A stretch of 64,000 nucleotides of DNA from an uncultured virus (IMG/VR IMGVR_UViG_3300007177_000029). Lineage: Duplodnaviria; Heunggongvirae; Uroviricota; Caudoviricetes; Crassvirales. The translations under genes and the position numbers were made by a program. The stretch's first letter is position 1. Each line of letters begins with the position of its first letter. This document shows, one piece after another, positions 39,601-61,457 of the stretch. Where the stretch lies: the IMG/VR virus record IMGVR_UViG_3300007177_000029. One strand, 5' to 3'. The notes beneath the pieces are model-generated. The model was not told the DNA's origin and made no database searches. It worked only from the letters and a program-made list of their open reading frames with translations.

Positions 39601-42600
39601 GGTGCAGTATCAGTAGAATCTACTTCATTAGCTTGGAGGTCATCTTCTGCTATTGATAATTTAGAAGAAGATAATGATGTAGAATTAACTAAATTTTTAG
39701 AAAATCCATCTATTGATATAACTGAATTTAACGCTGAATTTGAAATTGATGAAGATTATTTAAAACAGAATAAACCTTTATACGATAAATTAAATAGTGG
39801 AGAAACTTTAACTCAAGAAGATATTAATAATATACCTATTAAAGTTTATTTTTTAAATAAAGAAGGTAATAGAGTAAAAAACAGAAACAATGAAGATTTG
39901 TTTAGTTATTTACACGCTAATGATTTTTGGAATGGTAAAAATATACAATCTGTTAATCCTGAAGATTTAAAAAAAGAATTAGCAATTTTTAAATTTAACA
40001 TATTAAAAAAATTAAAAAATAACGAAAAAGCTATTTCTAAAATATTAAATCAAAAAGATGGTATATTACAGGAAGATTATGAAATGGTTTTAAATCCTGC
40101 TACTAATAAAAAAGAAAGAAGACTAGTATTTAAACCATTAAGTGAAGCTATTGCATTAGATGAAAATGAAATAGAATTTTTATTTGGTGATAGTTTTAAC
40201 CAATATATTTCTGGTAATTCAATTGACCAAGAAGCACTACAACATACTACTGCTACTCCAGGTGCTATATACATTAAATTTAAAAAACCTAATGGTAAAG
40301 TATTTCCTGCTAGAGTATTTGTTAGAAAACTTGATAATAATGATGTAAATGCTTTATTTAGTATTTTAAATTATGCTTATTCACAAAACCAACCATTAAA
40401 AACAGAAATATCTAAATTAAATCCTGAATTACAAAAAGAACTAAGTAATTCTCAATTTGTTAAAGATTTAATTAGTGTTTTAAGTTCTAAAGCTACTTTA
40501 TTAGATGTATTAAATAATTTTGTTTACGAAGGTAAAATTTCTCAAGGTAAAGGTTTAAATGAATTAAGAAAAGTAGGTAATGATGTTTTTATAAATGGTG
40601 TTAAATTTAATGTAAATGATTTTAATAATGGAAACCAGAGTAAAATAAAAGCTGAATTAGCTAAAAAAATGATTAATATTAATGCTAAAAAATTAAATCA
40701 ATCTTCTTACAAAAAAATATTACTTGATAATAATGTAATTCAAACACATATAAGATTAAAAAAAGGTTATGTAACACCTTTTTCAACACCTACTACTGTA
40801 ATTAGTAATAGATTAGAAGGTGATTCAACAAATCAATCTTCTGATGTTGAAGAAAGATTTGATGATGAAACTACAACTCAATCTACTCAAGAATCTAATA
40901 TTGAAGCTAAAAAAGCTGATATAGAAAGATTAGAGAAAGAAAAGCAAGATTTATTAAATCAACCTATTAAAGAATCTAAAGTAAAAGAAGTAACTCCTTC
41001 TAAAGTAGATACTTATTTAAGTACTCCTAATCAAGATGGTAGTTTTAATAGTTCTTCTTCTAGAATGTCTTTTATACCAGGAGCTTCAATAATGGCTTTT
41101 GAAAGTATAGGAAATAATAAATTTGCTGTATATATAAGTAAACAAAGCGATGCTGTAAATATGGCTTTAGCATATCCAGATAGAACAATTGACCCTGTAT
41201 TTGAAGCGTTATCTGCTTTTAACCCAAAAGCAAAAGAAATACAAGTTATAAAACCTGCTATTGTTGAATTGCAAGGAGATAAGTATGTTTTAATTGAAAA
41301 AGGATTAATTGATTATGATAGTGTAGGTATAAATAAATCTAATGAAACAAAAACTTTACCTGATACATCTAAAATAGATGCTCAAATAGCTCAAAAAAAA
41401 GCTGAGTTAGCTGAATTAGAAAAAAGAAAACCAGAAATAGTAAATAGATATTCTGATTCAGATGTAAAATCAAATCCTGATAAAATTTATGTTTTTGGAG
41501 ATAATGTACAAAGAACAGGAACTGGAGGTCAAGCACAAATAAGAAATAATTCAAATGCTTTTGGAATAGCTACTAAGTTAAAACCAAGTAATAACCAAGA
41601 CGCTTTTATGTCTGATAATGATTTAGAATCTAATAAAAAAATTATTGATTCTGATATACAAAAAATACTTAATCAAAACAAACATTTAGTATTTCCTAAA
41701 GATGGATTTGGTACTGGTTTAGCAAAACTTAAAGAAAAAGCACCTAAAACTTATGAATATTTAAGACAAAGATTATTAGAAGAGTTTTATTTTGATAATG
41801 AAAATGGAAAAATAATTGAAAACAATGAAAAATTAGCTAAATTAGAATCTAAACAAGAAGTTTTAGAAAATATAAATGAAACACTTACAATTAAAGAAAA
41901 TGTAATAGATAAAGATACTGAAAATGAAAAAGATAAATTAGAAAAATTTAAAGATACTGATGATGTTAATGATATTTCAGAATTTGATGATTTTGTACTA
42001 AACAGTAAAGAATCTGAAGACACAAAAACAGAAAAAGTTATTGAACAAAAAGTAGACAATTTTTTAGAAAATGAATTTAAAGAAGACGTAGAGAAAATAG
42101 CAAAAGAAGAAAATTTAACTGTCGAAGAAGTAAAACAAAAAGTTAAAGATAATTTAAATAATAAAAATTTATCTTCTTTTAGTAAATCTTTTAAAAATTT
42201 AATTGATAAAATTAAAAAACTAATTTTAACTTTATTTGTTTCTGGTGCTATAATAGCAGGAACTTCTAGTTTTTTTTTAGATAAAGATGGTACAGTTTCT
42301 TTTGATATTTTTTCTAATATTGAAATAGAAAACATAAAACAATGGGGTACTAGATTTTTAGATAAACAAGGTTTAATAGAAGTAGCAGATAATCAAATAG
42401 TAAAAGAGTCAAGTTTACCTAAAATAGTAGAAAATATAAAACCTCAAAAAATATTTGAGATTATAGGCTCTGTTCCAGATAGTTATAATTCATCTGATAC
42501 TTTATTATCTTATAGAAGTCAATGGGATAACTCTGAAGGATTTAGATATATACCTGTTCCTGTTAAAAAAGATTTACCAAAAGGAGGTATGAAAATTTCA

Positions 42601-45402
42601 GGTGTAGTAGGAGTAGGACATTTTTTATTAGATGCTTCTATTTCTGATAAAACATATTCTCATGAAAATAATAAAGTTTATTTAAGAAATGCAAAAATAA
42701 ATAATGATTGGATTCCTGCATTTGAAAAAAATAAAGATAATTCTGTAACATTAAAGTATAAAAAATATAATAATTTAACAAAAAATGATATAGTAGTTTC
42801 TCCTTTAAGACAATTTAAATTTACTAACATAGACTTTAACAAAAGTAAAAAACCAGAAGGATTTAAATCATCAATTAAAGAAGTTAAAACTAAAGATGGA
42901 AAAGGAACTTATTTAATATTTAAAGATAAAGATGGGTATTCTAGATTTAGTGGTGGTTCTGTTGTTTTTATATTTAACGATTCTTACGGTAATACAATTG
43001 TTAGAGATTTTGCAGGTTCTATTAATCAAATAAAATTAGAAGGTGAAAACATAACAAATTCTTACAATTTAAATGAAAATGATTTAGTTATAGGTTATCA
43101 TGATGTTGGTTCTTTTAGTGCAAAACCTAAAGCAAAAAACAATGAAATAAATACACAACAATGGTCAGGATTTAACCCTAATGGAGAAACTGGTGGTGCA
43201 TTACTTATTCCTACAGAAGGTAATATTAACAATTCAAAACCAATTAATTCTGTGTTTTCAACTAAACAAACACCACAAAAAACAGATAGCGATAAATTAA
43301 ATGAAGCAGTTGAAGTTTTAAATAAAATATTACCTAAAGAAGTAGCTATAACACTTCAAGATGATTTAATTAAAATATTTGAAAATGGTGATGCTGCTGT
43401 AGCATCTTTTAGCAAAGCAGGTATTATTTTATCTTCTTTTGCTGATGATACAGATGCTTATCATGAAGCTTTCCATGCTGTGTTTAGATTGTTATTATCA
43501 GGAAAAGAAAGAAATAGTTTAATAGAAAATTCTAAAAATGATTTCTTAGAACCTACTGATGAACAGATTAAAACATTAATGGATAGACATAATTTATCTA
43601 AAGAAGAAGCTATTGATTTATATTACGAAGAAATGTTAGCTGATGAATTTGGTAAATATATGTTAAATCCAAATGAATACACTTTTAATAATAAAGAACA
43701 AAAATCATTTTTTGAAAAATTATTAATCTGGATTAATAATATATTAGGTATAAAATCTAATAGAGAAAAAATATTTAGTTCTATTAGAAAAGGTGATTAT
43801 AGTAATAGTAAACAAGCTGAAGATTCATTAGTTAATTTAAATGTTAATTCTACTGAATTAGCAATGTTTAATAATGAAGTTAATTATATGCTTAAATCTG
43901 TTGAAATATTACAATCAGATAAAGCTAAACAAGTATTTACTAAAGCTGAAAAAAATAATTGGGATTTAAACAAAACTTTAACTGAACTACAAATACCTAA
44001 AGAACAAAAACAATTAATATTAGATTTAGGTATTAATAATAGAGAAGAAATAGCTTTAGAATTAGCTAGTAAATATAGTTATACTGTTGAAGTCAATACT
44101 GCTAAAAGTAAAGAAGATTTTTCAGATAGTGACACTCAAGAAATAGTATTTACAACGCCATCAGGAATAAGATATTATGGAGATTATCAAGAAAATTACT
44201 TTTCAAAAAATAAAGAGATTATATCAAAAGAAGAATTTGTTACTGCATTAAATAATAATAAAAGTATAAATAATTCTTCATATTACGCTAATCTAACAGT
44301 TCCAGGAGGTATTAATTATACAGAAAATGAAATAACTACTACGTTAATTACACCCTCTATTAAAGGTCATGCACAGTTTGCTACTGATAAAGGTATTGGT
44401 TGGTTTAGAAGTGATGATAAAATAATTAATATAAGAAAAAGAAAGTTTGACCCAACAGAAGAATTTGAAGGTAATATTACTGAAAATAATTTAACTATTG
44501 GTGAAGGTTCTAAAACTCGTAGAATACTAGAAGTACAATCTGATTTATTTCAGAAAGGTAGAAATATAGAATTTTTATCAAATAATCCTTATGTAACAGA
44601 TGAACAGCTTACTGCATTAAATAGTAGGAATTTATCTGATGAAGAATATAGTATAGAATTTAATAAAATTGCTGATAAATCTTCTAATCAATTCTTACAA
44701 CTTCTAAACAAAGACAATAATTGGGTAACTTTCTTTGTTAAATCTATTATACAAGACTCTGCTAAGAAAGGATATGAAAAAGTATTATTTCCTACTGGTA
44801 ATACAGCTAGTAAAGTTGAAGGACATACTACTTTAGAAGAGTTTAAAAAGCAGAAAGAAGATAGGATTAAAGTATTAGAAGCTGGTATAAATTTAAAACC
44901 AGACCCAAATATAGATTTTACTAAATATTCTTTTAGAGAACTAAAAGATATGGGTTATGATTATTTAGGAAATGAAGATGGAAAAGCTATTTGGAAACCT
45001 TTAGTAAAAGATAAAACCGAAGCTTTAAATGAAATAAACCAACTTAAACAAGAACTTGAAAGAGTTGAAACAGAAGGATTTGGTGCTTTAAAACCTATTT
45101 ATAATTTCTATGAAAATACTGTAACTAATATTCTTAAAAAACAAGGATATAATGCTGAATTAATTACTGATGAATATGGTAATACTTGGAATGAAGTTAC
45201 TATTAAACAGTCAAGAGATTTAAGTCCTATAGTGTTTAAAACTAAAAATAGAATAGTTGAATCTAAAGCTGAACAATTATCTTATTCAAATTATTTTGAA
45301 TCTAGAATAAATAAACCAGGTAATCCTTTATCTGAACAACAGTTTAATTCATTATCTTTGACAGAACAAGAAGTATTAATTAATCAAACAAAATATTGTT
45401 AA
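36649..45402 (+). CDS. Giant polyvalent cargo protein with zincin metallopeptidase and inserted domains
   Basis: 2917 aa; N-terminal Gly-rich hydrophobic helices, coiled coils, YHEAFHAVF...EEMLADEF zincin motif. Confidence 0.8.
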   Translation: MSKDTNNKKTSSQIAPQEDKFSYINNLVNNSNKILNNKVISEESKKYSSLFENSLIANQLGKTQELLPGDVKNITGGADYEKVQDILGQGYNIFDGSLNVRKALGDKQSGWAQAGGALNQAIVGEIIGGTVEGTGRLLDIKGSIDLYNGNIKEFDNVLTELGSGLKGWAEHSTPIFGSDEMFSSGWLAKGLVTTASSLSLLIPAMGTVKAVGGLGRALGVLKSMENLSTAGRTAAWIRTGISQAVISRHMENWLEAREVWDNTLNEYVNNKGLSLQEAEQAASKAVRQSYILNTAMLIFDIPQYVLMGRKTFGSSEASDKIMAALGKSKSNILGSRAKALGFNMASEGFEEAYQYVVGNEVVNYQMYKDGLATNPLSDKFLSGYMKDNDFWTSVIFGALGAGVHSGVGKMINKAFYSKKLEANDNLRIENFKKTQEIQKRIYNKLAKAYESNNQEAVESAIEELTYLSALNSYEFGNSDIALETMGMIKNASNEELVAMGLPEDKIDEFKANIDNAINQTKDIFKKLKKNSKIFGDEVNKEVTTTELQLEKIDRLINNSEKNIAEKRKELEKSIDLKNLSPEEQQILENKLFIDGGKSRIIAIDEFLQKNNQLTEEQRINFETQKSEIEQLVKEKSKDNKKLIQDLSGSSYLGNVFSDKGLSSISTLFDEEFNSISASVNDNAVSSREEYLSSLDKSKREKLESLEKRLDKISKANELYTAELQKELAKHGVFKLRQKELQKNLDYYTSEKYIKEKKQIIEEVRKKQADAAQQAINDEKLADDTINSKLNQNKKTNEAETTTVPGFNEVVENLNNKVQQKTEEQGYNVELVDLVNEFFNASENNKVNKQIKKLLDKNKIYNLFYNIENTENFELSDLENSILTYASEPTEVNYNKIKTLTKEDNSYNKESDVFKAEEAIKEIENQAEEEVKAEIVAAKKVVSINQSNEIPEITNNSVETNVLDENEDVFESDIREYKEYDEKSSGAVSVESTSLAWRSSSAIDNLEEDNDVELTKFLENPSIDITEFNAEFEIDEDYLKQNKPLYDKLNSGETLTQEDINNIPIKVYFLNKEGNRVKNRNNEDLFSYLHANDFWNGKNIQSVNPEDLKKELAIFKFNILKKLKNNEKAISKILNQKDGILQEDYEMVLNPATNKKERRLVFKPLSEAIALDENEIEFLFGDSFNQYISGNSIDQEALQHTTATPGAIYIKFKKPNGKVFPARVFVRKLDNNDVNALFSILNYAYSQNQPLKTEISKLNPELQKELSNSQFVKDLISVLSSKATLLDVLNNFVYEGKISQGKGLNELRKVGNDVFINGVKFNVNDFNNGNQSKIKAELAKKMININAKKLNQSSYKKILLDNNVIQTHIRLKKGYVTPFSTPTTVISNRLEGDSTNQSSDVEERFDDETTTQSTQESNIEAKKADIERLEKEKQDLLNQPIKESKVKEVTPSKVDTYLSTPNQDGSFNSSSSRMSFIPGASIMAFESIGNNKFAVYISKQSDAVNMALAYPDRTIDPVFEALSAFNPKAKEIQVIKPAIVELQGDKYVLIEKGLIDYDSVGINKSNETKTLPDTSKIDAQIAQKKAELAELEKRKPEIVNRYSDSDVKSNPDKIYVFGDNVQRTGTGGQAQIRNNSNAFGIATKLKPSNNQDAFMSDNDLESNKKIIDSDIQKILNQNKHLVFPKDGFGTGLAKLKEKAPKTYEYLRQRLLEEFYFDNENGKIIENNEKLAKLESKQEVLENINETLTIKENVIDKDTENEKDKLEKFKDTDDVNDISEFDDFVLNSKESEDTKTEKVIEQKVDNFLENEFKEDVEKIAKEENLTVEEVKQKVKDNLNNKNLSSFSKSFKNLIDKIKKLILTLFVSGAIIAGTSSFFLDKDGTVSFDIFSNIEIENIKQWGTRFLDKQGLIEVADNQIVKESSLPKIVENIKPQKIFEIIGSVPDSYNSSDTLLSYRSQWDNSEGFRYIPVPVKKDLPKGGMKISGVVGVGHFLLDASISDKTYSHENNKVYLRNAKINNDWIPAFEKNKDNSVTLKYKKYNNLTKNDIVVSPLRQFKFTNIDFNKSKKPEGFKSSIKEVKTKDGKGTYLIFKDKDGYSRFSGGSVVFIFNDSYGNTIVRDFAGSINQIKLEGENITNSYNLNENDLVIGYHDVGSFSAKPKAKNNEINTQQWSGFNPNGETGGALLIPTEGNINNSKPINSVFSTKQTPQKTDSDKLNEAVEVLNKILPKEVAITLQDDLIKIFENGDAAVASFSKAGIILSSFADDTDAYHEAFHAVFRLLLSGKERNSLIENSKNDFLEPTDEQIKTLMDRHNLSKEEAIDLYYEEMLADEFGKYMLNPNEYTFNNKEQKSFFEKLLIWINNILGIKSNREKIFSSIRKGDYSNSKQAEDSLVNLNVNSTELAMFNNEVNYMLKSVEILQSDKAKQVFTKAEKNNWDLNKTLTELQIPKEQKQLILDLGINNREEIALELASKYSYTVEVNTAKSKEDFSDSDTQEIVFTTPSGIRYYGDYQENYFSKNKEIISKEEFVTALNNNKSINNSSYYANLTVPGGINYTENEITTTLITPSIKGHAQFATDKGIGWFRSDDKIINIRKRKFDPTEEFEGNITENNLTIGEGSKTRRILEVQSDLFQKGRNIEFLSNNPYVTDEQLTALNSRNLSDEEYSIEFNKIADKSSNQFLQLLNKDNNWVTFFVKSIIQDSAKKGYEKVLFPTGNTASKVEGHTTLEEFKKQKEDRIKVLEAGINLKPDPNIDFTKYSFRELKDMGYDYLGNEDGKAIWKPLVKDKTEALNEINQLKQELERVETEGFGALKPIYNFYENTVTNILKKQGYNAELITDEYGNTWNEVTIKQSRDLSPIVFKTKNRIVESKAEQLSYSNYFESRINKPGNPLSEQQFNSLSLTEQEVLINQTKYC

Positions 45403-48400
45403 ATGGCACATTGTATTTTTAGAGGTAGTAAAGAATTTAAAGAACTTCAAAAAGAAACTAATTTACATGAAGATGTTCTTTCTGTTAAAATAGAATTATG
45501 GCAAAAGAATAAAATTAATGAATTAGGTATTTTATTAAATGAAAATAAAAAACCTATCTATTTACCTGAAAATAATTTATTTACAGTAAAACCTATACAA
45601 ACCACAGATGTAAAAGCTAAATCTAAAGCTAAAATAGCTACACAATATATTGGATTTGCAGAAGGTATTACAGGTAGTTCTACTGCTTTATATGCTAAGC
45701 AAATAAGTGAGCAAAGTAATAAGTTAATTTCTACAGCAAATATACCTCAAAATTTAGTAAGTGGTGTTGAATCTTTTGGAACAAAACAAGAAGCTAATGA
45801 CAAAGCTAAAAAACTACTTGGTAGCAATCCACATTCTATTGATATGATAGAAGCTGGTCTTAGAACCAGAACTACAAGAAGTGTAGGAGAAATGTCTAAG
45901 TATAATGTTAAGGTTGGTGATGTTGTAAAACAATTTGGTAAGTCTGCTGATGGAACAATTAAAAATATTTTAACAAGAATAACTGCAATACATCCTAAAG
46001 GAAGTCCTGAGTTTTTCAACACTTGGGAAAAAGAAGGGTGGACTGCTGAAGGAGTTGAAGCAATAAAAAGATTTAAAGATGGTGCAGCAGCTATTGAATT
46101 TGAAGTAATAAAATCTGATATAGTAAATTCAGGAAACTATTCTTCTAACGATGTAATATTTGTGTCTATTGGTGGTAAAAGAGGTAATGAAACTGTTAGA
46201 AAACAACAACAAGATAGAACTATTAGAGAAGCTATTAAAGCATTAGAAGATGGAGCTATTTTAATTACAGATAATGCTGCGTATGTAGAATCTAATTCTT
46301 ATAATGAAGGAGAAAAAAGATTAGCTGCTAACTTAAAAGCAAAAGGTTATAATTATTCTGAAATAACTATTGATGGTAATTTATTAGGTGTATGGAAAAA
46401 GTTAAAATCTTTTAAAGATGATAAAATAAATGAAATATTAGATACTTTTCCTACTAAAGAAGAGTTAGGTTATCAAAAATTACAATTATCTGATATTTTT
46501 ACTGCTGATGAAGTTGATGATTTAGTTAATGGTTATGTTTATTTTTTAACTCAAAGTAATTTAAGTCCTGAAATTGATACAATAGAATTTGATAAAACTA
46601 CTGCTTTAAAAAAAGTATTAGCTTCAATGAAAAAACAAGGTAATAGCCATTTAGCAGATATTATAGTTGAAGAAGAATTATTTAATGATATATATTCTTT
46701 AGGTGATGAATTTTTACAATCATTAGGTATAAAAATAGAAAAAACTTTTAATGATGAAATAGAAGAAGAAAATGAAGATGGGGGTATTGATATTTTAGAA
46801 TCTTATGAAAGAGACCCTTCATCAATAGCTAATTCTGATATGCTTATATTTTTAAGTTTAGTACCTAAATTTAAAGTAAGTTTAAGAGGTGCTACTGTTT
46901 TTGATAAAAGTGAATTAACTGGTATTCCTAAATTTTTAAATGCTAACGAAGTAAAAAATACATTATACGATATATTAAGTAATAATGTAACAGATAATGC
47001 TTATCAAGATGGTTATCAGATACTTCATAAAAAGCTAGAAGAATATGCAGATAAAAATCCTACAATTAAATGGGTTTTAAAATCTTTAGAAAAAAGAAGT
47101 GAGAAATTTAAAACTAATTTTTACCAAGTGTTTAATAATGCTGATTTAACTTTATTTTCTGTTTTATTAGATGATACTACTGGTACTACTAGAGTAAGAA
47201 TACAATCAAGTTCAATACAAAATGATGAAACTTCATTATTTAATAAATGGGTATCAGCACACACTTATAAATTAATTACTACTACATTTAATCCTGCAAC
47301 TAATGGATATGATTATATTTATGATAAAAATCTTGTAAAAGACATAAATTCTAAATATGAAGAAATAAAAAATTTATTAGTTAGAAAAAATTTAGAAAAT
47401 GAAGATTTGGAAAGTCTAAAAAAAAGTGTTTTAAATTATTTTGAAATGCTTGGTATTACTTTAACAGAAAATCAATACTATGAATTATTATCTACTTTTT
47501 ACAAATTAGACACTTTTAAAGGTAAAAATCCTACTAATTCAGAATATACTTTACAAGGATTAAAAAATCTATTTACTAGAGAAGAAGGTATTAGATATAT
47601 AACAACCCATTTTTTAAAAATGGAAAAAGAAAATAATTACAATGTAAAATTTAATGAGAAGTTAGGTAAAAATGATAATGTTATTGAAGACCAAAAATTC
47701 ACTAGATATTTAGCTTCTATTGTAAATAAAGTTGAGAATACTACATCTTCTCCTATAATATTAGGTGCTAAAGGTAAAAAATATTGGAATAAAATAAAAT
47801 ACAACCTTATTACTAAAAATGTATTAAGATGGAAAAATAACAAATCACTTTTAAAATCTTTTATTGATTCTAGTTTATGGGCTAAAAATTCTTTAATAGC
47901 TGATGCTATGTTAAAAGATGAAGCTGATATACAAGTTAAAATATTTAATAATTTTAAAGAAGTAGGTAAAAATGATGAAGGTGAAAAAGTAACTAATTTA
48001 AAAGAAAGTGAATTGTTAGTTGCTCATTTTAATATGACTTTACAAAATAATTTTGTTGGTTTAGCAGAAGCTGATAAAAGTATGCAATATGTAATAAGTG
48101 GATTTCCTACTCAAATAATTAATCCTAATGATATTAAATTTGAAAATGGTAGATTAGTATTAGCTGATACAGAAAACATGGTAATTGAAGTGATGTTAGA
48201 TTATCTTGCTGCTGAACTAAATAGAATTAGACAAACTTATGATGATTTGTATGATGAAAATAATAAAGAAAGAGAAAATGTAAAAGGTAAAATACAATAT
48301 CTACATACTCAAAAAAATGGTTTAAATTCTTATTTATTTCCTAGTTTAACTAATAAAAACAGAGCTAGTGGTGATTCTTTATTAACAGAACTAGGATTAG

Positions 48401-51400
48401 CTGATGCTTTTGGTAAACCGTTTCCTATAACAAAAGAGTTTCTTTTATCAAATGAAGGATTAAAAGTACATATTAAAAATGCTTTTGAAGAAGCTTTAAA
48501 TAAAGATTTAAAATTATTTTCTAATAATTATTTAATAGATAAAGTATATAATGAAAACAAAGAATTTATAAGTTATGATTCAAGATTTAAACCTGTTGAA
48601 GCTGTAGCTTCTCAGTATGAAAGTTTTAATCAGATGTTTGCAACATTTGTATTTAATTCAATGATAGGTTCTATAGAGATGTCTAAGTTATTTTTAGGAG
48701 ACCCTGCTGCATTTGAATTTAAAGGTTTAAGTTTATTTTCAGATATTACTAAAAGAATACCTTTAATAGTAGCTTCTGGTAATATTGCTAGAATATATGA
48801 AGATAAAGCTAATAATGTTAAAGTAAATCCTACATTTACTTCTGCTGTTACAAATAGTTCAAAAGGACCTTCCAGATTTTACTTTAATGAAAACGGAACT
48901 GTTAATGAAGAAATTATTGATAATTTAGTTGATTCTGCTAATAGCATTTTACCTATTGAAAGACAAATAGCTAAAGCTGCATTTAAAAGTAGTATTGAAG
49001 CTTATAGAAAAAATAATAAAGCAGATGCTCAATCTTGGATTACATTAGATTTATGGAAACAAAGATGGGCTTCATTTAAAGGTTGGGATGCTAATATGGA
49101 AGCAGCATATCAAAGATTAAAAACAAAAAATGCTAATTTAAACGATATAGCTTTAATATTACAACCTATTAAAACTGTAACTACTGAATTAAAAGTTAAC
49201 AAGAATAAGCAAACTTATGCTATTTATCAAAAAATGTCTGAAGCAGTATTACCTGATTTCTTATTTGAAGATTTCAGATTACAGCATATTATAGACACTA
49301 TGAAGAAAAATAAAGTTGACCAGCTGGTTACTTTAGATGCACAAAAAGTAGGAGGAGTAGATGTAAATGAATTTTTTGATAAAACAGGTCAGCCTATAGA
49401 TAATGTGGTTTTAGAAACTTTTACTGTTAATACAGATTCTACTGTTTTACAATTAGATATGCCTTTAAAAGGATTAAAAGACACTTTAATTGGTTCACAG
49501 TTAACTAAAAATGCTTTATCAGGAGTTATAACTACTGCTACTTATGTAAGTCCTATTACTGGTAAAGAAACATCAGGTAAAGATTTAATATTAGAGTATC
49601 ATAATTTAATAGCAGATTTATCTGATGAAGGTTTACAAGAATTATCTAGTAAAATGGGTATAGATACAGTAACCAAAGAAATAAATGATTATGGTAAACT
49701 ATTTGATTTTATAGCAGAATCATTACAAGATGATTTATCTTCTAGTGATATAGAAATGATAGTTAAATATAAAACATTAGATGTTGTACCTGGAGCTACA
49801 ATTAAAATTCAAAATACTATTAATAAAGCAATTAAAAAACATACAGTATCATTAAAGCAAAAAGGTGGAAGTGGTATTTTAATGTCTGGTGTTGGATTAA
49901 TTGGTGGTAAAGATTTATTTACTAAAGAAGTTAAAAATGGTATAGTATGGTTTAAAAATGATTTAACTAAAGGATTATCTCCATCTTATGTAACAAAAGA
50001 AGGTTCTAATTATAAAACTCAAAAAGTTCAAATTTTAATAGGTCATAAAGAAATAAGAAAAATTTTAGGAAATAAATTAAACACTTTAACAAGTGAAGAG
50101 ATTTCTAAATTAATAGACCCTAAAGTTTTAGAAGGAGTTATGTACAGAATACCTAACCAATCATTAGCATCTAATGATGTTTTTGAAATTGTAGGTATAT
50201 TACCTGATTTTATGGGTGATACTATTATTGCTTTTGATGAAATTACTACTAAAACAGGTTCTGACTTTGATATTGATAAAGCTTATTACATATTACCTAA
50301 TTTAGAAGTTAATGAAAAAGGTATCATATCATTACCAAAAACACCTAATGAAATGAGTGATGTAGAAGCATACTTTACTAAATTTAAAAAAGATTGGTCT
50401 AAATATAAATCAGCTAGAAAAATAAGACTAGAATTAGAGAATAATGAAAAAACTTTAAAAGAGAAAAAATACTATTTAAAAGAAATTGCAAAATTTAAAT
50501 CAGAATTAGCTTTATTAGTTGAACAAAAAAATGAAGAAAAACAAAAGCTAACAGCAGAAAAAACTTCATTAAGTGAAATGTCTTTAGTAATTGAAAACAT
50601 ATTAAAATCTAATATTTCTGAATTAAATAATGATATTAAAGCAACTTTAGAAAATTTAAAAAATTATAAAGAAGCTATAGATGAATTAAGTCAAGAAATA
50701 GAACAAGATTTAATGGATAGATTATTAGAAGAAGGTTTAATTCCTACATTAGAAGAATTTAAACAATTACCTTTTAATAAAAAAGCTACTAAAGAAGTTT
50801 TACAGAATAAAAGATTAGAATTTTTAAATACATTTTTAGGAGACCCTAGACATTTAGCTAGAGTAGTAAAACCTATTGATAACGATACTTTAAAAAAATT
50901 AATTATAGAATTACACGGTGAAGAAGATTTAAATGCAAATGATGATTTAAATTTCTGGAAAGGTACTACTCAATTAAAAACTAAACAAACATTTGATATG
51001 GCTAAATCAATGGTTGGTATTATTGCTAATTCTATGACTGACCATAATGTTAGTACTTCTGAAGTTTTAACTCATATTGGAGTAATGTTTGGTAGAGGTA
51101 TTCAAGAAAAAGGAGAATCTTTAGTTTCTGCTATTATGAATGAAGATAACATAGAAGTTTCAGAAGTTTTAAATGACTTTATGAATGCTATTGTAGATGC
51201 CGCTAAAGACCCTTTTATTGTAAGAGGTAATGTAAATCTTTATACAGCTAATACAGTATTTATGTTAGTAAGGGCAGGTGTTCCATTAGAGTTTGTAATG
51301 GCTTTTATTGGTCAACCAGTATTAAAACAATTATCTTTTTTAAAATCAACAAGAGAAGGTAGAGTAGCTGAAAATATGTATGAAAATGGTTTATTTGTAA

Positions 51401-52974
51401 AACCAGAAGATGAATTAATGAATAGTTTATTTGATAGATTATCAGAAAGTCAAATAAATGATATAAAATTTAATAGTGGTGAAGTTAATTTAAGCTCATT
51501 TGAGTTAGATAAGCTAAAAAATAATATAAAACTACACCAAGTTTCACCTGCTTCTGTTAATGTGTATGAACAAGCTTTAATATTAAAGTACTTTTTAAAA
51601 TTAATGGGTAATGCAAAAAACTTAAATAATTCTTTAAAAGTGACAAAAGAAGATGTTAATGGACCAGGTAAAGTTTTTATAGAATCTTATATAAAAGAAG
51701 AAAATATAAAACAAGAATTAAAAGAACCAAAAATAAGAAATCTAGATAAAAAATTAGGATTAACTTATAGTTCTATTTTTGATACTTTATTAGAAGATGA
51801 AAATAGAAAAATGTTTGGTGCATATTTTATGAACGGTACTAAAATAGTAAATAATATGTCTAGTGATATATCATTAACTAACAGTCAGTCATTTAAAAAT
51901 ATTTTAAGTATAGTTAAAAACTTACAGAAATCTGATATATTTAATAATCAAGATTTAATAGAAGAAATGCAAAAAGAGTTTTTATCTTTAGTTTTATCTA
52001 TGGGTGAAAGTCCTATAAATTTAAAAAATTCTGAAAAATTAAATTACTTTAAAGGTGAAAACTCTGTAGCTAGACTTTTATTAAAGTTTACAAATAATTC
52101 TAACAATAAAGAATTTGTTTTAAACAATCCTTTTTTAAAAATGTTAGGCACAAATTTATCTAACAGAAAAAATCCTTTAGATGTTATAACTTTTAATAAA
52201 AACAGTTCTTATACTGAAAAAGAATTAAAAGATGCTTGGGAAGCTCTAGATAATCACAGTAAAGAAGGTAGAATGTTAGCTAGAAAATTAGCTTTATATT
52301 CTTTTACTGCTAATAGTTTTAGTAGTGGTCTTTATACATTCCATGAATATATGCCTAGTTCTTACATAAGTTTATTAAATATTCATGATTTAGTAATAGA
52401 CGGTAAAAATACATTAGAAGCAAATAACACAGGTAAATTTGTTATGGATATGTTAGAACAAATTGTTAGAAATAATAAAGAAAGTAAATTAATAAGAACT
52501 GTTCCTGCTAATAAAAAAGATTTTATAGTTTATAAACAGTTAATACCTAATATTTCTAATGATTTGTTATTTGTTGTAAACAATAAAGACTTTTTAAGTA
52601 CTTTTGCTTTAAATGAAAAATTAGGAATTTATCCTATGTTTGTAAAAAAGAAAACAGCAAGTAAAACTAATCCTATTATTTTATATAAATTTATAGGGTT
52701 AGACCAAGGTTTACCAGTATATAGAGCTATTAAAAATTTAGGTTTAGAAGGTAAAGGGTTTAAAATAAAAGAATACGATAAGAGTGTAACTAAAACTTCA
52801 GCTTTTCAAAGTTTAAATACAAATCCATTACTGTTTAATATGGCTTCTAGTTTTAGTAAATTTGAAAAACAAATTAGTTCATTTGTTTCAATGCCTAGTA
52901 TCTATAAAGAAATAGAAAATAAAGTTATTACAGAAAAAGAATTAGATGATTTAATAAATAATTGTAAAATATGA
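45403..52974 (+). CDS. Virion-packaged DNA-dependent RNA polymerase (phi14:2 gp66-like)
   Basis: 2523 aa; YRIPNQ (about 50143-50160) and catalytic GSDFDIDK (about 50257-50280); also ELSK-like EMSKLFLGDPA, KR, DAQ and VDAAKD motifs. Confidence 0.9.
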   Translation: MAHCIFRGSKEFKELQKETNLHEDVLSVKIELWQKNKINELGILLNENKKPIYLPENNLFTVKPIQTTDVKAKSKAKIATQYIGFAEGITGSSTALYAKQISEQSNKLISTANIPQNLVSGVESFGTKQEANDKAKKLLGSNPHSIDMIEAGLRTRTTRSVGEMSKYNVKVGDVVKQFGKSADGTIKNILTRITAIHPKGSPEFFNTWEKEGWTAEGVEAIKRFKDGAAAIEFEVIKSDIVNSGNYSSNDVIFVSIGGKRGNETVRKQQQDRTIREAIKALEDGAILITDNAAYVESNSYNEGEKRLAANLKAKGYNYSEITIDGNLLGVWKKLKSFKDDKINEILDTFPTKEELGYQKLQLSDIFTADEVDDLVNGYVYFLTQSNLSPEIDTIEFDKTTALKKVLASMKKQGNSHLADIIVEEELFNDIYSLGDEFLQSLGIKIEKTFNDEIEEENEDGGIDILESYERDPSSIANSDMLIFLSLVPKFKVSLRGATVFDKSELTGIPKFLNANEVKNTLYDILSNNVTDNAYQDGYQILHKKLEEYADKNPTIKWVLKSLEKRSEKFKTNFYQVFNNADLTLFSVLLDDTTGTTRVRIQSSSIQNDETSLFNKWVSAHTYKLITTTFNPATNGYDYIYDKNLVKDINSKYEEIKNLLVRKNLENEDLESLKKSVLNYFEMLGITLTENQYYELLSTFYKLDTFKGKNPTNSEYTLQGLKNLFTREEGIRYITTHFLKMEKENNYNVKFNEKLGKNDNVIEDQKFTRYLASIVNKVENTTSSPIILGAKGKKYWNKIKYNLITKNVLRWKNNKSLLKSFIDSSLWAKNSLIADAMLKDEADIQVKIFNNFKEVGKNDEGEKVTNLKESELLVAHFNMTLQNNFVGLAEADKSMQYVISGFPTQIINPNDIKFENGRLVLADTENMVIEVMLDYLAAELNRIRQTYDDLYDENNKERENVKGKIQYLHTQKNGLNSYLFPSLTNKNRASGDSLLTELGLADAFGKPFPITKEFLLSNEGLKVHIKNAFEEALNKDLKLFSNNYLIDKVYNENKEFISYDSRFKPVEAVASQYESFNQMFATFVFNSMIGSIEMSKLFLGDPAAFEFKGLSLFSDITKRIPLIVASGNIARIYEDKANNVKVNPTFTSAVTNSSKGPSRFYFNENGTVNEEIIDNLVDSANSILPIERQIAKAAFKSSIEAYRKNNKADAQSWITLDLWKQRWASFKGWDANMEAAYQRLKTKNANLNDIALILQPIKTVTTELKVNKNKQTYAIYQKMSEAVLPDFLFEDFRLQHIIDTMKKNKVDQLVTLDAQKVGGVDVNEFFDKTGQPIDNVVLETFTVNTDSTVLQLDMPLKGLKDTLIGSQLTKNALSGVITTATYVSPITGKETSGKDLILEYHNLIADLSDEGLQELSSKMGIDTVTKEINDYGKLFDFIAESLQDDLSSSDIEMIVKYKTLDVVPGATIKIQNTINKAIKKHTVSLKQKGGSGILMSGVGLIGGKDLFTKEVKNGIVWFKNDLTKGLSPSYVTKEGSNYKTQKVQILIGHKEIRKILGNKLNTLTSEEISKLIDPKVLEGVMYRIPNQSLASNDVFEIVGILPDFMGDTIIAFDEITTKTGSDFDIDKAYYILPNLEVNEKGIISLPKTPNEMSDVEAYFTKFKKDWSKYKSARKIRLELENNEKTLKEKKYYLKEIAKFKSELALLVEQKNEEKQKLTAEKTSLSEMSLVIENILKSNISELNNDIKATLENLKNYKEAIDELSQEIEQDLMDRLLEEGLIPTLEEFKQLPFNKKATKEVLQNKRLEFLNTFLGDPRHLARVVKPIDNDTLKKLIIELHGEEDLNANDDLNFWKGTTQLKTKQTFDMAKSMVGIIANSMTDHNVSTSEVLTHIGVMFGRGIQEKGESLVSAIMNEDNIEVSEVLNDFMNAIVDAAKDPFIVRGNVNLYTANTVFMLVRAGVPLEFVMAFIGQPVLKQLSFLKSTREGRVAENMYENGLFVKPEDELMNSLFDRLSESQINDIKFNSGEVNLSSFELDKLKNNIKLHQVSPASVNVYEQALILKYFLKLMGNAKNLNNSLKVTKEDVNGPGKVFIESYIKEENIKQELKEPKIRNLDKKLGLTYSSIFDTLLEDENRKMFGAYFMNGTKIVNNMSSDISLTNSQSFKNILSIVKNLQKSDIFNNQDLIEEMQKEFLSLVLSMGESPINLKNSEKLNYFKGENSVARLLLKFTNNSNNKEFVLNNPFLKMLGTNLSNRKNPLDVITFNKNSSYTEKELKDAWEALDNHSKEGRMLARKLALYSFTANSFSSGLYTFHEYMPSSYISLLNIHDLVIDGKNTLEANNTGKFVMDMLEQIVRNNKESKLIRTVPANKKDFIVYKQLIPNISNDLLFVVNNKDFLSTFALNEKLGIYPMFVKKKTASKTNPIILYKFIGLDQGLPVYRAIKNLGLEGKGFKIKEYDKSVTKTSAFQSLNTNPLLFNMASSFSKFEKQISSFVSMPSIYKEIENKVITEKELDDLINNCKI

Positions 52975-55900
52975 TTTGTCCTAACAAAAATTCAGAAGAA
53001 TGGAAATTCTTAATGAAAAAACATAACAATAATGAAAGAGAAGCTCTTAGAAACTGGGCTGAAAACAATTTAAATGATTTTACAGATAATGTATTAGTTT
53101 CTGAAAAAGCTTCATTTGTTGTAGATGAATTATCTAAAGTTTTTGAAGGTGTTAATATTATTTATGATAATCTATTAGATGTACCTGGAAAAGTAATTAA
53201 TCAAGAAGGTGTAATATCTTTAGTTATTAATCCTCAATTAATGGAAAAAGATACTATAGCTCATGAATACGGGCATATATTTTTAGATACTATAGGAGGA
53301 TTAAATAATGAAACAGTTAAACTAGCTTTACAAGAGTTAGAAGAAACAGAAACAGCTAAAAAAGTAAGAGAATTATATTCAGATGAAACTAAAGAAGTTC
53401 AAGATAAAGAAATTATTATAAATGCTTTAGGTAAAGAAGTTACTTCTTTATTAGAAAAAGATAAAGATTCTTCTAGATTATCTAAATTAATTAGAGGTAT
53501 TTTAAATCAAATAGCTGAGTTTTTTGGTTTAAATAATAATCAAATTAAAATTTTAGCTAATCAAATGATTAAATCTAATTTTAAATCTTCAGAACTTGTT
53601 TTAGATGAAATAGAATATAGTCAAAAATTAACTAGTGAAGAAGAATTTAAAAAGCAACAATTAATTGATAAAATTAAAGTTTCATTAAATAGTAAAATTA
53701 ATGAATTAAAAAACCAATTAACTTTTAAAAATGAAGAAGCTGAAAATAATGCTACTTTAAATAAGTTTGAAGATTTATTTACAAAATTAAATTCAGCAAA
53801 TGCTGATTTAGCTATTTCTGATTATTTAAAACTAGGAGTTTCAAATTCTTCAGCAGTAATAGAAAGATTAAAAACTTTAAAAAAAGAAGATAAAATAGAT
53901 TTATATATTTTACATAAAATAAAAAACTATATAGATGCTTTTAGTCCTGATATTACAGATTCATTAATGGAAATTATAAATGAATTAGATGAAGTAGATT
54001 CAGTTAATTTAAAGAATTTAATATTTAACTATAAACAAGTAGAAGGAGAATATCATAATTTAGGTTTAAAATTTATTAAAGAAAAAATTAATTTAAGCTT
54101 TTCTAGTATTCTAGCTTTTTACAGAAGAAAAGCTAACATTGAATTTGTAGAATATGCTAAAAATAATAATATTTCAAAATCTGATAAACAAAAATATGAA
54201 GAAGCAAGAAATAAATATATTGAAGATTATCTAGATAGAAATTCTAAAAAAATTAGTGAAGAAATAGAATTAAAGAAAAATAAGTTTTTAACTGTAGTAG
54301 ATAGAGATATATCATTTTTAGATTATTGGGCTACAAACCCTAGAGATTTAAATAATAATATTATACAAGAAGCTATTAAAATATTAGATGAAGCTGATTA
54401 TGAAACATCTGCTGAAACTGATGATTATTTATTAAGAGCTAAATATTATTATGATAGATATGTTTCTTATGTAGGTAATAAAAATGACCAAAAAAAGTTA
54501 TATGAACCTATTTTACAAAAAGATGAAAAAGGTAATACTATAAGATTTTTAAGAACAGTTAATAAAAAAAGAGGTCAATCAGAAAACAGTGTTTTAGACC
54601 CTAAATATAAAGGTACTCCTGTTGAAGATTTATTAGTATTTTTAACAGAATCTTATAAAGAAAGAGATAAATTGATACCTAAAAAATATAGAATTAATCA
54701 TGCTTTACCTAACATTGAAAAAGATAATTTAGAAAGAATATTTGAAGTTGGTGCATTTCAATTAATTAAAGGTTCTTTTCAAGATTTATATACAGCTAGA
54801 GCTACTGATACTGATACTGGAGCTAGAGATGAAAATTTAAAAGAATCTGAAAATTACTTAGATAGAAAACTACAAACTGTAGTTAATGCTTCTGGTAAAG
54901 AAAAGCAATTTATTCCTATACATTATAGAAATAAAATAGATGAAAAAGATGCTTCATTTGATGTTGTTAGTTTAATGGTATTAGATATGCACCAAGCTTT
55001 TAATTATAAAAATAAATTTAAAGTACAATCAACATTAATGGTAATGAGAGATTTACTAGGTAGAGAATCTGCTAAAGTAGTAAAAACAGCAAGTATGTCT
55101 AAATTAATTAAAGAAGTATTTGGTGTTGAAGGTGTTGATGTTAAAACTCCTGCTAAAGAAAGTTTAGTTTATAGAGCTTTAAATGATTTAATTGAAGTTA
55201 GATTATATAATCAAAAATTAAAAGGAGACCCTACACTTAATAAAATAGTACAAAACTTTAAAAGTTATGTTTCATTAGCTTTAATGACACATAACCCTAT
55301 TTCTGGTGCAGCTAACTACATTCAAGGTACATCAATGAATATAATTAAAGCTATAGGTAGAGGAGATTTTACTTTAGATGATTATATGAAAGCTAGAATA
55401 AAAGTATCTAAAGATTTACCTAACATTACTTCTGATTTAGCTAAATTTCATCACAAATCAAAAACTCAACTTTTAATGAGGAAAATGAATATTAGAAGTA
55501 ATTATTCACCTTTAATTAATAAGTTTTCAGATAGTAATGTTTTAAAAAGATATGCTAGTCCATTTTCATTTATGTATTTTAACGATGTAGCTGAATTTAA
55601 TATTCAAGCATCTAATATGTATGCTTCAATGAATAATATTAAAGTAAAGAATAAAGATGGTCAGTATATAAATAAAGAAGGTAAAGTAGTAAAAGATAAA
55701 AAAGATGCAGCATCTATAGATGAAGTTTACAAATTAGTTTATACAAATTCTGAAACAGGAGAAACAATAACTGAAGAAGAATATGATAGATTACCTAAAA
55801 ATAAACAAGAATTATATTTAGATGGTAAATTGGAATTAATAGATGAAGCTTTTTCTGCTGATAGAATAGGTAATTTAAAAAATGAAGACGGTTCTATTAA

Positions 55901-56690
55901 TGATAGTGGTTTTAGAAAATTATCATTAAGATTAAGAGAAATAAACAGAAGTAGTTTTGGTAATTATGATGGTAATAATAGAGCAGGTATAGATAGATAT
56001 GCTTTAGGTACTTTAATTACTCACATGAGACAATGGTTTACACCTTTAGCTAAAGATAGATTTTTAGGAGGTTATTCTTTATTTAAATTTGATAAAAATA
56101 GTAAAGGTAAAAAAAGATTATCTTTTATAGGTTTAGATGAATTAAGGCTAGATGATATTAAATTTAATGAAAATCTAGAATCATTACAAGAAGGATTTTA
56201 TATAACATTACTTAGATATGTTGGTGATAGTGTTACTAAATTTAAACTAAACGCTTTTGTAGATAACTGGAATAAATTAGATGAATATGAAAAAGTTAAT
56301 ATGAGAAAATCTTTAACAGAAATCACATTAACTTTAAGTTTTGTAATTATTGGTAAAACTTTAGCTAGAATGAAAGGTGAAGCTGATGATGAAGATGAAA
56401 AACAAAGATTATTAGTAGCTTCTATTTTAGCAAACAGAGCAGCATCAGAGTTAATGTCATTCTGGAATCCTATGGAGTGGCAAAGAATAGCTACAACACC
56501 TGCTGTTTCTTTAGGTGTAGCGTCTAATTTATTTAAAGCTGCATCACAATTAATAACAGAGCCTACTGAAGTATATGAAAAAGGTAAATTTAAAGGTCAA
56601 AATAAAGCAAAAGTATATTTTTTACGTGCTACTCCTTTAAAGCCTTTATATAGAGATTTAGAGTCTATTCATAACTGGATAGTAAAATAA
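52971..56690 (+). CDS. Large cargo protein with N-terminal zincin motif
   Basis: 1239 aa; DTIAHEYGHIFLD; follows the RNAP gene with an ATGA overlap. Confidence 0.78.
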   Translation: MICPNKNSEEWKFLMKKHNNNEREALRNWAENNLNDFTDNVLVSEKASFVVDELSKVFEGVNIIYDNLLDVPGKVINQEGVISLVINPQLMEKDTIAHEYGHIFLDTIGGLNNETVKLALQELEETETAKKVRELYSDETKEVQDKEIIINALGKEVTSLLEKDKDSSRLSKLIRGILNQIAEFFGLNNNQIKILANQMIKSNFKSSELVLDEIEYSQKLTSEEEFKKQQLIDKIKVSLNSKINELKNQLTFKNEEAENNATLNKFEDLFTKLNSANADLAISDYLKLGVSNSSAVIERLKTLKKEDKIDLYILHKIKNYIDAFSPDITDSLMEIINELDEVDSVNLKNLIFNYKQVEGEYHNLGLKFIKEKINLSFSSILAFYRRKANIEFVEYAKNNNISKSDKQKYEEARNKYIEDYLDRNSKKISEEIELKKNKFLTVVDRDISFLDYWATNPRDLNNNIIQEAIKILDEADYETSAETDDYLLRAKYYYDRYVSYVGNKNDQKKLYEPILQKDEKGNTIRFLRTVNKKRGQSENSVLDPKYKGTPVEDLLVFLTESYKERDKLIPKKYRINHALPNIEKDNLERIFEVGAFQLIKGSFQDLYTARATDTDTGARDENLKESENYLDRKLQTVVNASGKEKQFIPIHYRNKIDEKDASFDVVSLMVLDMHQAFNYKNKFKVQSTLMVMRDLLGRESAKVVKTASMSKLIKEVFGVEGVDVKTPAKESLVYRALNDLIEVRLYNQKLKGDPTLNKIVQNFKSYVSLALMTHNPISGAANYIQGTSMNIIKAIGRGDFTLDDYMKARIKVSKDLPNITSDLAKFHHKSKTQLLMRKMNIRSNYSPLINKFSDSNVLKRYASPFSFMYFNDVAEFNIQASNMYASMNNIKVKNKDGQYINKEGKVVKDKKDAASIDEVYKLVYTNSETGETITEEEYDRLPKNKQELYLDGKLELIDEAFSADRIGNLKNEDGSINDSGFRKLSLRLREINRSSFGNYDGNNRAGIDRYALGTLITHMRQWFTPLAKDRFLGGYSLFKFDKNSKGKKRLSFIGLDELRLDDIKFNENLESLQEGFYITLLRYVGDSVTKFKLNAFVDNWNKLDEYEKVNMRKSLTEITLTLSFVIIGKTLARMKGEADDEDEKQRLLVASILANRAASELMSFWNPMEWQRIATTPAVSLGVASNLFKAASQLITEPTEVYEKGKFKGQNKAKVYFLRATPLKPLYRDLESIHNWIVK

Positions 56691-56832: not shown

Positions 56833-57690
56833 TTAAAAAATATATCTTATTTTATTCCACGGAATAATTTTATCATGAAGTTCTATAAAATCTTTTATAT
56901 AAAATCTTTTTATATCATGTTTATATCTTATATTTTCACCTCCATACTGACTAGTTTTATTTTCTTGGTATTTAGGATTCCATAATAATTCTTCACCTTT
57001 TCTATCTTTTTTTAAATTATCATAATGTTTTTTTTCATTATGTGTAAGAAATATACATTCTGCTAACACTTCATCTTTATATTCTACATAATCATTTACA
57101 TAATTAAACAATTCTTCATATTTTTCAAGCCAATTATCAGTAACTATAATAGGACTAAAATTTATATGTACTTCATATCCTGCATCAATAAAAGCATTTA
57201 TAGCTTTAATTCTATCTATAATAAGAGGAGTGTTAGGTTCTAGTAAAGTTGAATAATCTTGTGGCATTAGACTAAATCTAATTCTTACTTTTTTATTAGG
57301 ATTAAAATTTAAAAAATTAACAGGTATTATTTTAGTAGCTAAACTAGCTTTAGCTTTTTCATGATTTACAAAAAATTCAAAAATTGATTCCCAATCATAA
57401 TATTTACTATGTAAAGAAAAATCTTCATTGCATGAAATATCGTAAGTCCAATATATAGAATCTGTTTGATTTGGTGTTTTTTCTGGTAGCCAAGTAACAT
57501 GATTATTAATTGCAGCTAAAATATCTTTAATATTTTTTGCATAATTAAGAGATTTATCATTTGTATGACGTTTCATGTAACAATAACTACAGTCTAATAA
57601 ACATCCAAATCCAAAAGAAGGAGATATAAAATCTGTACTTCTTCCTGATTCTCTTATTTCAAATGTCTTTCTAATTACTTCTTTAATCAT
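56833..57690 (-). CDS. splB: Spore photoproduct lyase family radical SAM protein
   Basis: CLLDCSYC iron-sulfur motif, DISCNED, KVRIRFSLMP, R.AIN...AGYEVHINFSP; start at 57690 gives an ATGA overlap with mgsA. Confidence 0.88.
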   Translation of the reverse strand: MIKEVIRKTFEIRESGRSTDFISPSFGFGCLLDCSYCYMKRHTNDKSLNYAKNIKDILAAINNHVTWLPEKTPNQTDSIYWTYDISCNEDFSLHSKYYDWESIFEFFVNHEKAKASLATKIIPVNFLNFNPNKKVRIRFSLMPQDYSTLLEPNTPLIIDRIKAINAFIDAGYEVHINFSPIIVTDNWLEKYEELFNYVNDYVEYKDEVLAECIFLTHNEKKHYDNLKKDRKGEELLWNPKYQENKTSQYGGENIRYKHDIKRFYIKDFIELHDKIIPWNKIRYIF

Positions 57691-58055
57691 TTTAATCCTT
57701 TTAATGTTATTTGAGCATGACTTGGTGTTAAAGCTAAAGGAACACTTCTTAATACACAAGCTCTTATTAAAGCCATTATATCTGCATCATGTGGGTGTGC
57801 AGATTTAGTATCAATAAAAAAGAATACAGCAACAATTTTATTATCTAAAACTCTACTAGCTATATCAATATCACCACCATCATGACCACTTCTATATTTT
57901 TTATATATAGTAAAACCACTTTCCTCTAATCTGTCTCCAGTTGAACCTGTAGTTACTATTTTATAATTTAATTCTTCAATTAATTGTTTATTTTGTAAAG
58001 CAAAAGAAACCATTTGTGCCTTCATTGCGTTATGTGCTATAAATGCTATTCTCAT
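57687..58055 (-). CDS. mgsA: Methylglyoxal synthase
   Basis: IAFIAH..K, TTGSTG, SG..GGD, FFFID...HPHDADIMALIR. Confidence 0.9.
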   Translation of the reverse strand: MRIAFIAHNAMKAQMVSFALQNKQLIEELNYKIVTTGSTGDRLEESGFTIYKKYRSGHDGGDIDIASRVLDNKIVAVFFFIDTKSAHPHDADIMALIRACVLRSVPLALTPSHAQITLKGLK

Positions 58056-59833: not shown

Positions 59834-59844
59834 TTTTTTTTAAT

Positions 59845-60624: not shown

Positions 60625-60632
60625 AAATAATA

Positions 60633-61451: not shown

Positions 61452-61457
61452 ATTTAG

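Follow-up and report, generated by a model that had tools for sequence, protein, structure and literature searches.

Paired terminal cysteines in three giant proteins of a crAss-like phage and their possible head-to-tail linkage

Terminal cysteines in described phages and in the window

Podophages pass megadalton amounts of protein through a narrow tail, which raises the question of the mechanism and of the order of passage. For crAss001, the structural atlas describes the order of ejection as "likely to be controlled by packing and by interactions" (PMC10172136). Here we analyzed three giant proteins, A, B and C, which are encoded one after another in a 64,000-nucleotide stretch of an uncultured crAss-like virus (Crassvirales; IMG/VR record IMGVR_UViG_3300007177_000029). 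We refer to this whole stretch as the window. The only cysteines of the three proteins lie at the termini that face the neighboring gene.

The closest described counterpart comes from the cyanopodophage A4, in which cryo-electron microscopy revealed a disulfide between Cys1715 of gp27 and Cys5 of gp26 in the pre-ejectosome (PMC12002296). In the A-4L record, gp27 (1717 amino acids, aa) has its only Cys at position -3 and gp26 (1114 aa) has its only Cys at position 5. The accessible text of the A4 paper makes no mention of crAss-like phages. The true homologues of the window proteins are g067-g066-g065 of phi14:2 and gp47-gp50-gp49 of crAss001. The phi14:2 record annotates g065-g067 as virion proteins by tandem mass spectrometry, and crAss001 gp47, gp49 and gp50 were found in virions (PMC10172136). 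The crAss001 virions hold disulfides in the tail, and the same study ran both reduced and untreated virions for mass spectrometry (PMC10172136). As far as accessible, the text of the crAss001 atlas is silent on cysteine, and that of the phi14:2 study, in its preprint version, is silent on cysteine and disulfides. In N4-like phages (N4 gp50, DEV gp71-gp73), Cys is suppressed in the ejection operon, which has been ascribed to passage through the oxidising periplasm (PMC11445570). The core proteins of T7 are also ejected and almost Cys-free: gp14 (L092 3729-4319) contains a single Cys, its residue 2, and both gp15 and gp16 lack the residue entirely. A literature search, with most subscription journals outside its range, found no description of terminal cysteines in crAss-like cargo proteins.

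The window contains the structural block of a crAss-like phage, including terminase, portal and major head protein (PHROGs) as well as ring proteins and an auxiliary capsid protein. The block matches PF25731, PF25729 and PF25725 in Pfam, and its order of muzzle, cargo 1, cargo 2 and then giant A, B and C is identical to that in phi14:2. The first member of the giant series, A (36649..45402, + strand, 2917 aa), contains DUF7831 at residues 1599-1707 (Pfam), and its position and Cys pattern are those of phi14:2 g067 and crAss001 gp47. B (45403..52974, + strand, 2523 aa) matches the RNA polymerase gp66 of phi14:2 (PDB 6VR4 chain A) with an E-value of 1.9e-101 over query residues 458-1638, and it has the catalytic DFDID motif at 1621. 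By homology, B is a crAss-like virion RNA polymerase of the two-barrel phi14:2 gp66 type, at just 27% identity to this closest named phage. The last member, C (52971..56690, + strand, 1239 aa), has the position and Cys pattern of phi14:2 g065 and crAss001 gp49, and its HEYGH at residue 98 agrees with the zincin-like domain that the phi14:2 preprint gives for gp65 orthologues. Judging from their homologues, A, B and C are most likely packed in the virion and injected into the host.

A programmatic count gave four Cys in the 6,679 residues of A, B and C together: A2917, B4, B2521 and C3. The sole Cys of A is its last residue (TGT at 45397..45399, + strand), directly followed by the stop TAA at 45400-45402, and there is none at its N-terminus. 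The two Cys of B are Cys4 (TGT at 45412..45414, + strand), within the N-terminal 41 residues encoded by 45403..45525 (+ strand), and Cys2521 (TGT at 52963..52965, + strand), after which come Lys, Ile and the stop. The sole Cys of C is residue 3 (TGT at 52977..52979, + strand), and its C-terminus has none. The A/B junction reads TGT TAA ATG at 45397-45405, and the B/C junction is an ATGA overlap at 52971-52974. By comparison, the other 28 window open reading frames (ORFs) of at least 150 aa contain 119 Cys in 10,877 aa (1.09%), a rate at which about 73 Cys would be expected in 6,679 residues. The chance that four randomly placed Cys all fall within the 16 junction-facing terminal positions is about 3e-11. 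Together with the two cargo proteins, A, B and C make up 8,151 aa without a single internal Cys, whereas the Cys content in the rest of the window is 1.09%. The Cys pattern is real and far beyond chance.

A first-pass annotation, made from the translations by eye, had described four Cys near the junction-facing termini, outer chain termini and cargo proteins 1 and 2 free of Cys, and abutting genes (45402/45403; ATGA at 52971). The count agreed exactly, no internal Cys had been missed by eye, and the gene boundaries were confirmed from the sequence. The motifs it described as shared between termini are also present as printed: the N-terminal motif pair of B and C is CIFRGSKEFKEL and CPNKNSEEWKFL, and the C-terminal pair of A and B is TEQE..LIN..C and TEKE..LIN..C.

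Like gp27 and gp26 of A4 (Anabaena phage A-4L), the giant proteins come from neighboring genes, would be packaged in the capsid, and have sole Cys at the facing ends of an upstream and a downstream protein. No homology to the A4 proteins was detected (BLAST best E 0.05, hhalign probability <1%), and a profile of C homologues against PDB recovered no A4 chain at E <=0.01. The A4 link joins two proteins in a folded ring without an RNA polymerase, whereas the chain proposed for the window has three proteins. As far as the sequence tells, the window would work like A4 without membership in the A4 family. With phi14:2 and crAss001, by contrast, the window shares the block after muzzle and cargo and an identical terminal Cys pattern, although the giant proteins are only 24-27% identical. 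The window resembles the N4 gp50/DEV gp71 class in having a giant virion RNA polymerase and co-ejected proteins that are nearly Cys-free. It differs in that the N4-like polymerase is one protein of about 3,400 aa with no terminal Cys pairs described in the accessible text, whereas conserved Cys are found at every split in the window. T7 gp14 has no C-terminal partner Cys, so no pair rule applies to it.

Cysteine pairs at gene splits and fusions among relatives

Using B as query, we collected 100 homologous proteins at 22-94% identity. A Cys was found within the last 10 residues in 89 and within the first 10 in 65 of these; both were present in 61 and neither in 7. Internal Cys were absent from 67 of the 100, and all internal Cys added up to 69 in 298,923 residues. 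Most homologues without the N-terminal Cys were longer proteins (3,600-4,400 aa) that combine A-like sequence with B-like sequence after it. We also aligned B with 26 homologues of similar length (alignment A1; 21-32% identity), which were picked after the pattern was known. Here C4 and C2521 were among the 73 invariant columns, as were D1621, D1623 and D1625, while F1622 and I1624 of DFDID were nearly invariant (at least 90% of rows). The rows of a second alignment, A2, are the downstream partners of the Cys pair; the invariance of C3 there holds by construction and was not used. The terminal Cys, for which conservation in homologues had been predicted, are indeed kept at 21-35% identity. The pattern is conserved across Steigviridae, Suoliviridae and Intestiviridae and in Flavobacterium phage FpV4.

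The co-occurrence of the two Cys at gene junctions was quantified in viral contigs. An alignment-based scan matched 231 stretches, 173 of which encode a relative, and the best 80 loci were kept; the 79 new ones all read open under table 11. ORFs on the + strand of at least 500 aa were taken from their first ATG, and consecutive pairs were scored for a Cys in the last 12 residues of the upstream protein and in the first 10 of the downstream one. Retaining one locus per cluster at 70% identity of the polymerase ORF reduced the 80 loci to 61 non-redundant clusters. In all 80 loci including the window, 124 junctions had both Cys, 92 had neither, and 4 + 4 were mixed. In the 61 clusters the numbers were 99, 74 and 5 (3 + 2), which bears out the expected co-occurrence at adjacent junctions. 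The junctions with neither Cys were muzzle/cargo 1, cargo 1/cargo 2 and cargo 2/A. Three of the five mixed junctions have unrelated genes inserted between the partners (L041, L066), one is an apparent frameshift (L026), and in one the only Cys lies 32 residues from the end (L033). As a control, complete ORFs of 150-499 aa in the same loci had a Cys in the first 10 residues in 13/184 cases and in the last 12 in 29/184.

The 159 chain proteins, with 304,500 aa in total, contain 204 terminal and 29 internal Cys (0.0095%), and 140 of them have no internal Cys at all; the other ORFs of those loci have 1.2% Cys. Positions of the C-terminal Cys range from -1 to -12, most often -2, and those of the N-terminal Cys from 2 to 8, most often 3. 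The outer ends of the chain are mostly free of Cys. Of 53 complete first proteins, 49 have no N-terminal Cys, and in the four exceptions the partner is truncated, short or has its Cys at -32; of 58 last proteins, 57 have no C-terminal Cys. Complete chains consist of three proteins in 33 cases, two in 13 and four in one. The rule looks looser in cr273_1 (L091) and cr125_1 (L089), two gut Suoliviridae with recoded stops, where the N-terminal Cys of the last protein is kept and internal Cys are many (14 and 9 Cys in cr273_1, 7 and 8 in cr125_1).

Gene boundaries shift among relatives, and the Cys pair shifts along with them. When the protein of each relative was placed by conserved stretches of A, B and C (A2, A3, B1, B2 and so on), pairs were found at five split positions: A2/A3, A3/B1, inside B1, inside B2 and B2/C. 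The window and most relatives are split at A3/B1, L016-L019 at A2/A3, and most loci have the B/C split. In L059 and L013 the polymerase itself is split, near B 1530 and B 1903 respectively, with a Cys pair at the split. In L051 an additional protein is flanked by a Cys pair on either side. Conversely, A+B fusions have no N-terminal Cys (14 representatives, plus FpV4, cr55_1, cr4_1, cr125_1 and cr113_1), and their C-terminal Cys is often the sole one, while B+C fusions (L065 and relatives, crAss002) have no C-terminal Cys. In the fused L065, the stretch matching the B/C junction is free of Cys; neither the final nor the initial ~20 residues of split relatives align to it. Apparent frameshift breaks (L041 versus the intact L045; L076) have no Cys pair at the break. 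The pair is thus absent at fusions and present at extra splits, in line with the proposed loss in fused homologues.

The pair is also independent of gene adjacency. The gap between partner genes is at most 30 nucleotides in 87 of the 99 pairs, whereas in 8 of them the genes are 354-1,924 nucleotides apart. In crAss001 (gp47) and cr85_1 (gp056), the A homologue is encoded on the opposite strand, at a distance from where the polymerase gene begins; it nevertheless keeps its only Cys at -3 or -4, and the polymerase keeps Cys 5 or 3. One case of a missing Cys concerns crAss002 gp33 (L086 14247-14345), whose annotated start gives no N-terminal Cys. Annotated residues 33-35 read Met-Ser-Cys, in keeping with the rule for N-termini, and a gap of 170 nucleotides lies ahead of the annotated start. 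The true start of gp33 is probably 32 codons downstream of the annotated one.

A possible disulfide thread and its alternatives

Since the pair appears at every cut and vanishes at every fusion, the simplest reading is a joint role of both Cys, exerted across the cut on the two proteins. A disulfide would be the simplest such bond, and it is favored over a metal bridge because each terminus offers a single Cys and lacks a further conserved ligand. We therefore consider, with a probability of roughly 0.55, that A, B and C act as one polyprotein that is cut at the gene level and re-joined head-to-tail by disulfides into one thread. After translation, A Cys2917 would bond with B Cys4, and B Cys2521 with C Cys3. 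Because each Cys lies within a few residues of a chain end, the three proteins would add up to an almost linear thread of 6,679 residues, running from N to C; this nearness to the ends is what a thread passing through a narrow channel would need. That the termini of gp66 are unresolved in the crystal, according to the phi14:2 preprint, fits flexible ends. The purge of internal Cys would prevent wrong bridges as well as oxidation of the unfolded chain while it crosses the host envelope. Tethered in this way, A, B and C would stay together in the capsid at equal copy number, each protein would draw the next one through the tail, and the links could be reduced in the host cytoplasm. Bond formation in this phage, the pairing order, the threading of the chain and its reductive release are inferred. 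Comparison and one solved precedent, A4, argue well for the head-to-tail link proposed in the first-pass annotation; its specific docking motifs are only partly supported.

That annotation had read the shared motifs as cognate docking domains. They are shared within this phage and are clade-specific, but across relatives only the Cys is constant and its flanks are weak. Over the 99 junctions, Glu or Asp at -5 and -6 before the C-terminal Cys occurs in ~45%, Lys is common at -2 and +1, and Leu at +11 after the N-terminal Cys reaches 38%. Many C-type proteins, and also the B-type proteins with a shifted split, begin with the motif C-P-N-x-N-[ST]-x-E-[WF], so that part of the order may share a short conserved element at the N-terminus. 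In the relative P0001, which is 94% identical, residues 1-41 match B 1-41 at 100% and residues 32-2228 match B 330-2523. Because B 1-41 is identical there while the next 288 residues are missing, the N-terminal peptide is a unit of its own. The two junctions of the window look alike, so the motifs alone do not explain the order of the chain, which they had been proposed to set.

Several points weigh against the disulfide thread. First of all, virions assemble in the reducing cytoplasm, and gut members live without oxygen. The case for the bond in crAss-like phages is comparative. The similar junction motifs would also allow A-to-C pairing, B-B polymers or a B ring. Furthermore, the association between splits and Cys is inherited. 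On the tree of polymerase cores, with the split or fused state labelled by the length of sequence ahead of the core, this state changes 7 times and the N-terminal Cys 7 times. Only 4 independent contrasts fall on supported branches, of which ~3.8 are concordant and 0 opposed; the sign test gave p 0.125, not significant because there are too few events. The Cys offsets on the two sides of a junction are uncorrelated (rho 0.16, p 0.10). There are also outliers: the nearest C-terminal Cys is at -50 in cr273_1 (14 and 9 Cys in all) and at -32 in L033, L008 has Cys at -64 and 11, and gut Suoliviridae have more internal Cys. Finally, the phi14:2 preprint suggests cleavage of the fused forms and, if this is true, a permanent linkage is not needed.

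Among the alternatives, the one that survives best keeps the disulfides and gives up the thread. The bonds would form and hold a folded three-protein complex in the capsid, fixing its stoichiometry and position, and the proteins would not exit as a covalent chain. The A4 structure points in this direction, since its bond stabilises a gp27 helix, the C-terminal one, that docks into a gp26 cleft as part of a folded pentameric ring (PMC12002296), and the cargo proteins of crAss001 are predicted to be folded and helical (PMC10172136). Nevertheless, such a lock would require neither that the Cys lie at the very ends of the proteins (mode -2 and 3) nor a strict N-to-C order that mimics the fused proteins. 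Neither argument is decisive, and we regard the static lock as somewhat unlikely.

It is improbable that the terminal Cys act independently of one another, each serving a homodimer, an attachment to another virion protein or a modification, with the pairing at junctions merely inherited. The small number of independent split and fusion events would fit such a history, as would the lone Cys 2 of T7 gp14, which has no partner in gp15 or gp16, and the lone Cys 5 of FpV4 gp30. However, gain and loss coincide at every architecture examined, the chain ends are Cys-free, and cargo proteins 1 and 2 offer no Cys. We consider it about as improbable that the pairs bind Zn, Cu or Fe between the termini instead of forming a disulfide, a metal bridge being the other option named in the first-pass annotation. 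The acidic residues common 5-6 positions ahead of the C-terminal Cys are potential extra ligands, but each terminus has a single Cys, the profiles of the 99 junctions contain no conserved His or second Cys, and the sole solved case, A4, is a disulfide. Chance (~3e-11 in the window alone) is a negligible explanation, and so is a junction signal in the nucleotide sequence, for instance one for translational coupling between partner genes, which mostly abut or overlap. A DNA-level signal was rejected because the Cys persists even with a partner gene on the opposite strand or hundreds of bases off and because its distance from the start or stop codon varies.

A split intein with protein trans-splicing was tried and rejected as well: no Hint-type Pfam family was found in A, B, C or their terminal parts at E-values up to 5, and the Cys lie 1-12 residues from the end, which leaves no domain-sized sequence to the terminus. 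A Pfam search of the 28 further window ORFs found no thiol oxidase or thioredoxin. Complex prediction of B 2400-2523 (A1) with C 1-750 (A2), run without controls, gave a score of 0.08 (mark 0.32), which counts neither for nor against binding.

Returning to the disulfide thread, we tentatively extend it to Crassvirales as a whole. The injected machinery would then be one covalent thread, a polyprotein of 6,000-7,000 residues that can be cut at any linker and re-joined by a Cys pair. It would exit the tail in gene order and be dismantled by the reducing cytoplasm, which would free the RNA polymerase. The terminal Cys pairs would accordingly be a readable code for which virion proteins travel together, for their order, and for correcting start codons, as in crAss002 gp33. 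If true, N4-like phages with their one giant polymerase, crAss-like phages with their split polymerases and the pre-ejectosome of A4 would come under one principle, and the free fission and fusion of genes in this block would be explained. For the most abundant phages of the human gut, the pairs would also help to annotate which proteins belong to the chain and where their genes truly start. The conserved pair rule makes the question of protein order cheaply testable in phages that are already cultured.

Movable modules and other features of the window

Domains near the junctions switch sides or hosts among relatives. Directly after the N-terminal peptide of the polymerase, B residues 42-329 (45526-46389) form a module of ~280 aa that is absent from P0001. 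It recurs at 50-84% identity, in very different positions, in distant giant proteins (P0007, P0013, P0031, P0038 and others) and looks like a mobile domain cassette. A second movable module, A residues 2408-2864 (43870-45240), lies at the C-terminal end of A in the window, at the front of the C-type protein in L023, L046, L049 and L056, and at the front of the polymerase in L015 and P0006. No significant match to B 42-340, A 2400-2917 or C 1-500 turned up in Pfam, PHROGs or NCBIfam; in the ESM Atlas, searched with the B module, there was no usable match. The most widely conserved stretch of A, residues 2193-2389 (43225-43815), has the sequence HEAFH (HExxH) at residue 2272, and in some relatives its equivalent lies in the polymerase gene. 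Searched against PHROGs and NCBIfam, it gave one weak match to a PHROG endolysin (E 0.004) and nothing in NCBIfam; it may be a metallopeptidase or a wall-degrading domain. Precomputed Pfam matches place extra domains in relatives of the giant proteins (P0020, P0035, P0038, P0049, P0057 and others), including helicase families, DUF1768/NADAR, a 2OG-Fe(II) oxygenase and a zeta-toxin-like kinase. The ejected chain seems, from these matches, to be a carrier of changing enzyme cargo.

Upstream of A lie the muzzle protein (27852-32135, identified by PF25731 in Pfam) and the two cargo proteins, both Cys-free and outside the Cys-linked chain. The homologue of cargo protein 1 (32194..34041, + strand, 615 aa) matches PF25725 crAss_CARG1 with an E-value of 3e-19. 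In the cargo-1 position of FpV4, gp30 (L087 4889-6685, 598 aa) has a lone N-terminal Cys 5 with no obvious partner. The probable cargo protein 2 (34072..36645, + strand, 857 aa) was assigned by position; it has no Pfam or PHROG match, and BLAST gave weak matches to proteins in the same position in relatives.

Downstream of the block, early or middle genes on the - strand (56833-62165) encode a radical SAM protein resembling spore photoproduct lyase (PF20903, E 5e-22), an MGS-like domain protein, an HNH endonuclease, a 5'-3' exonuclease and a ThiF-family protein. Elsewhere in the window, 14346-14930 encodes a 194-aa protein with 13 Cys (6.7%), many of them within its final 35 residues. The collagen-like protein that follows (14943-16127, 394 aa) has only two Cys, at residues 7 and 8, so that these two probable fibre proteins may be another case of Cys at facing ends.

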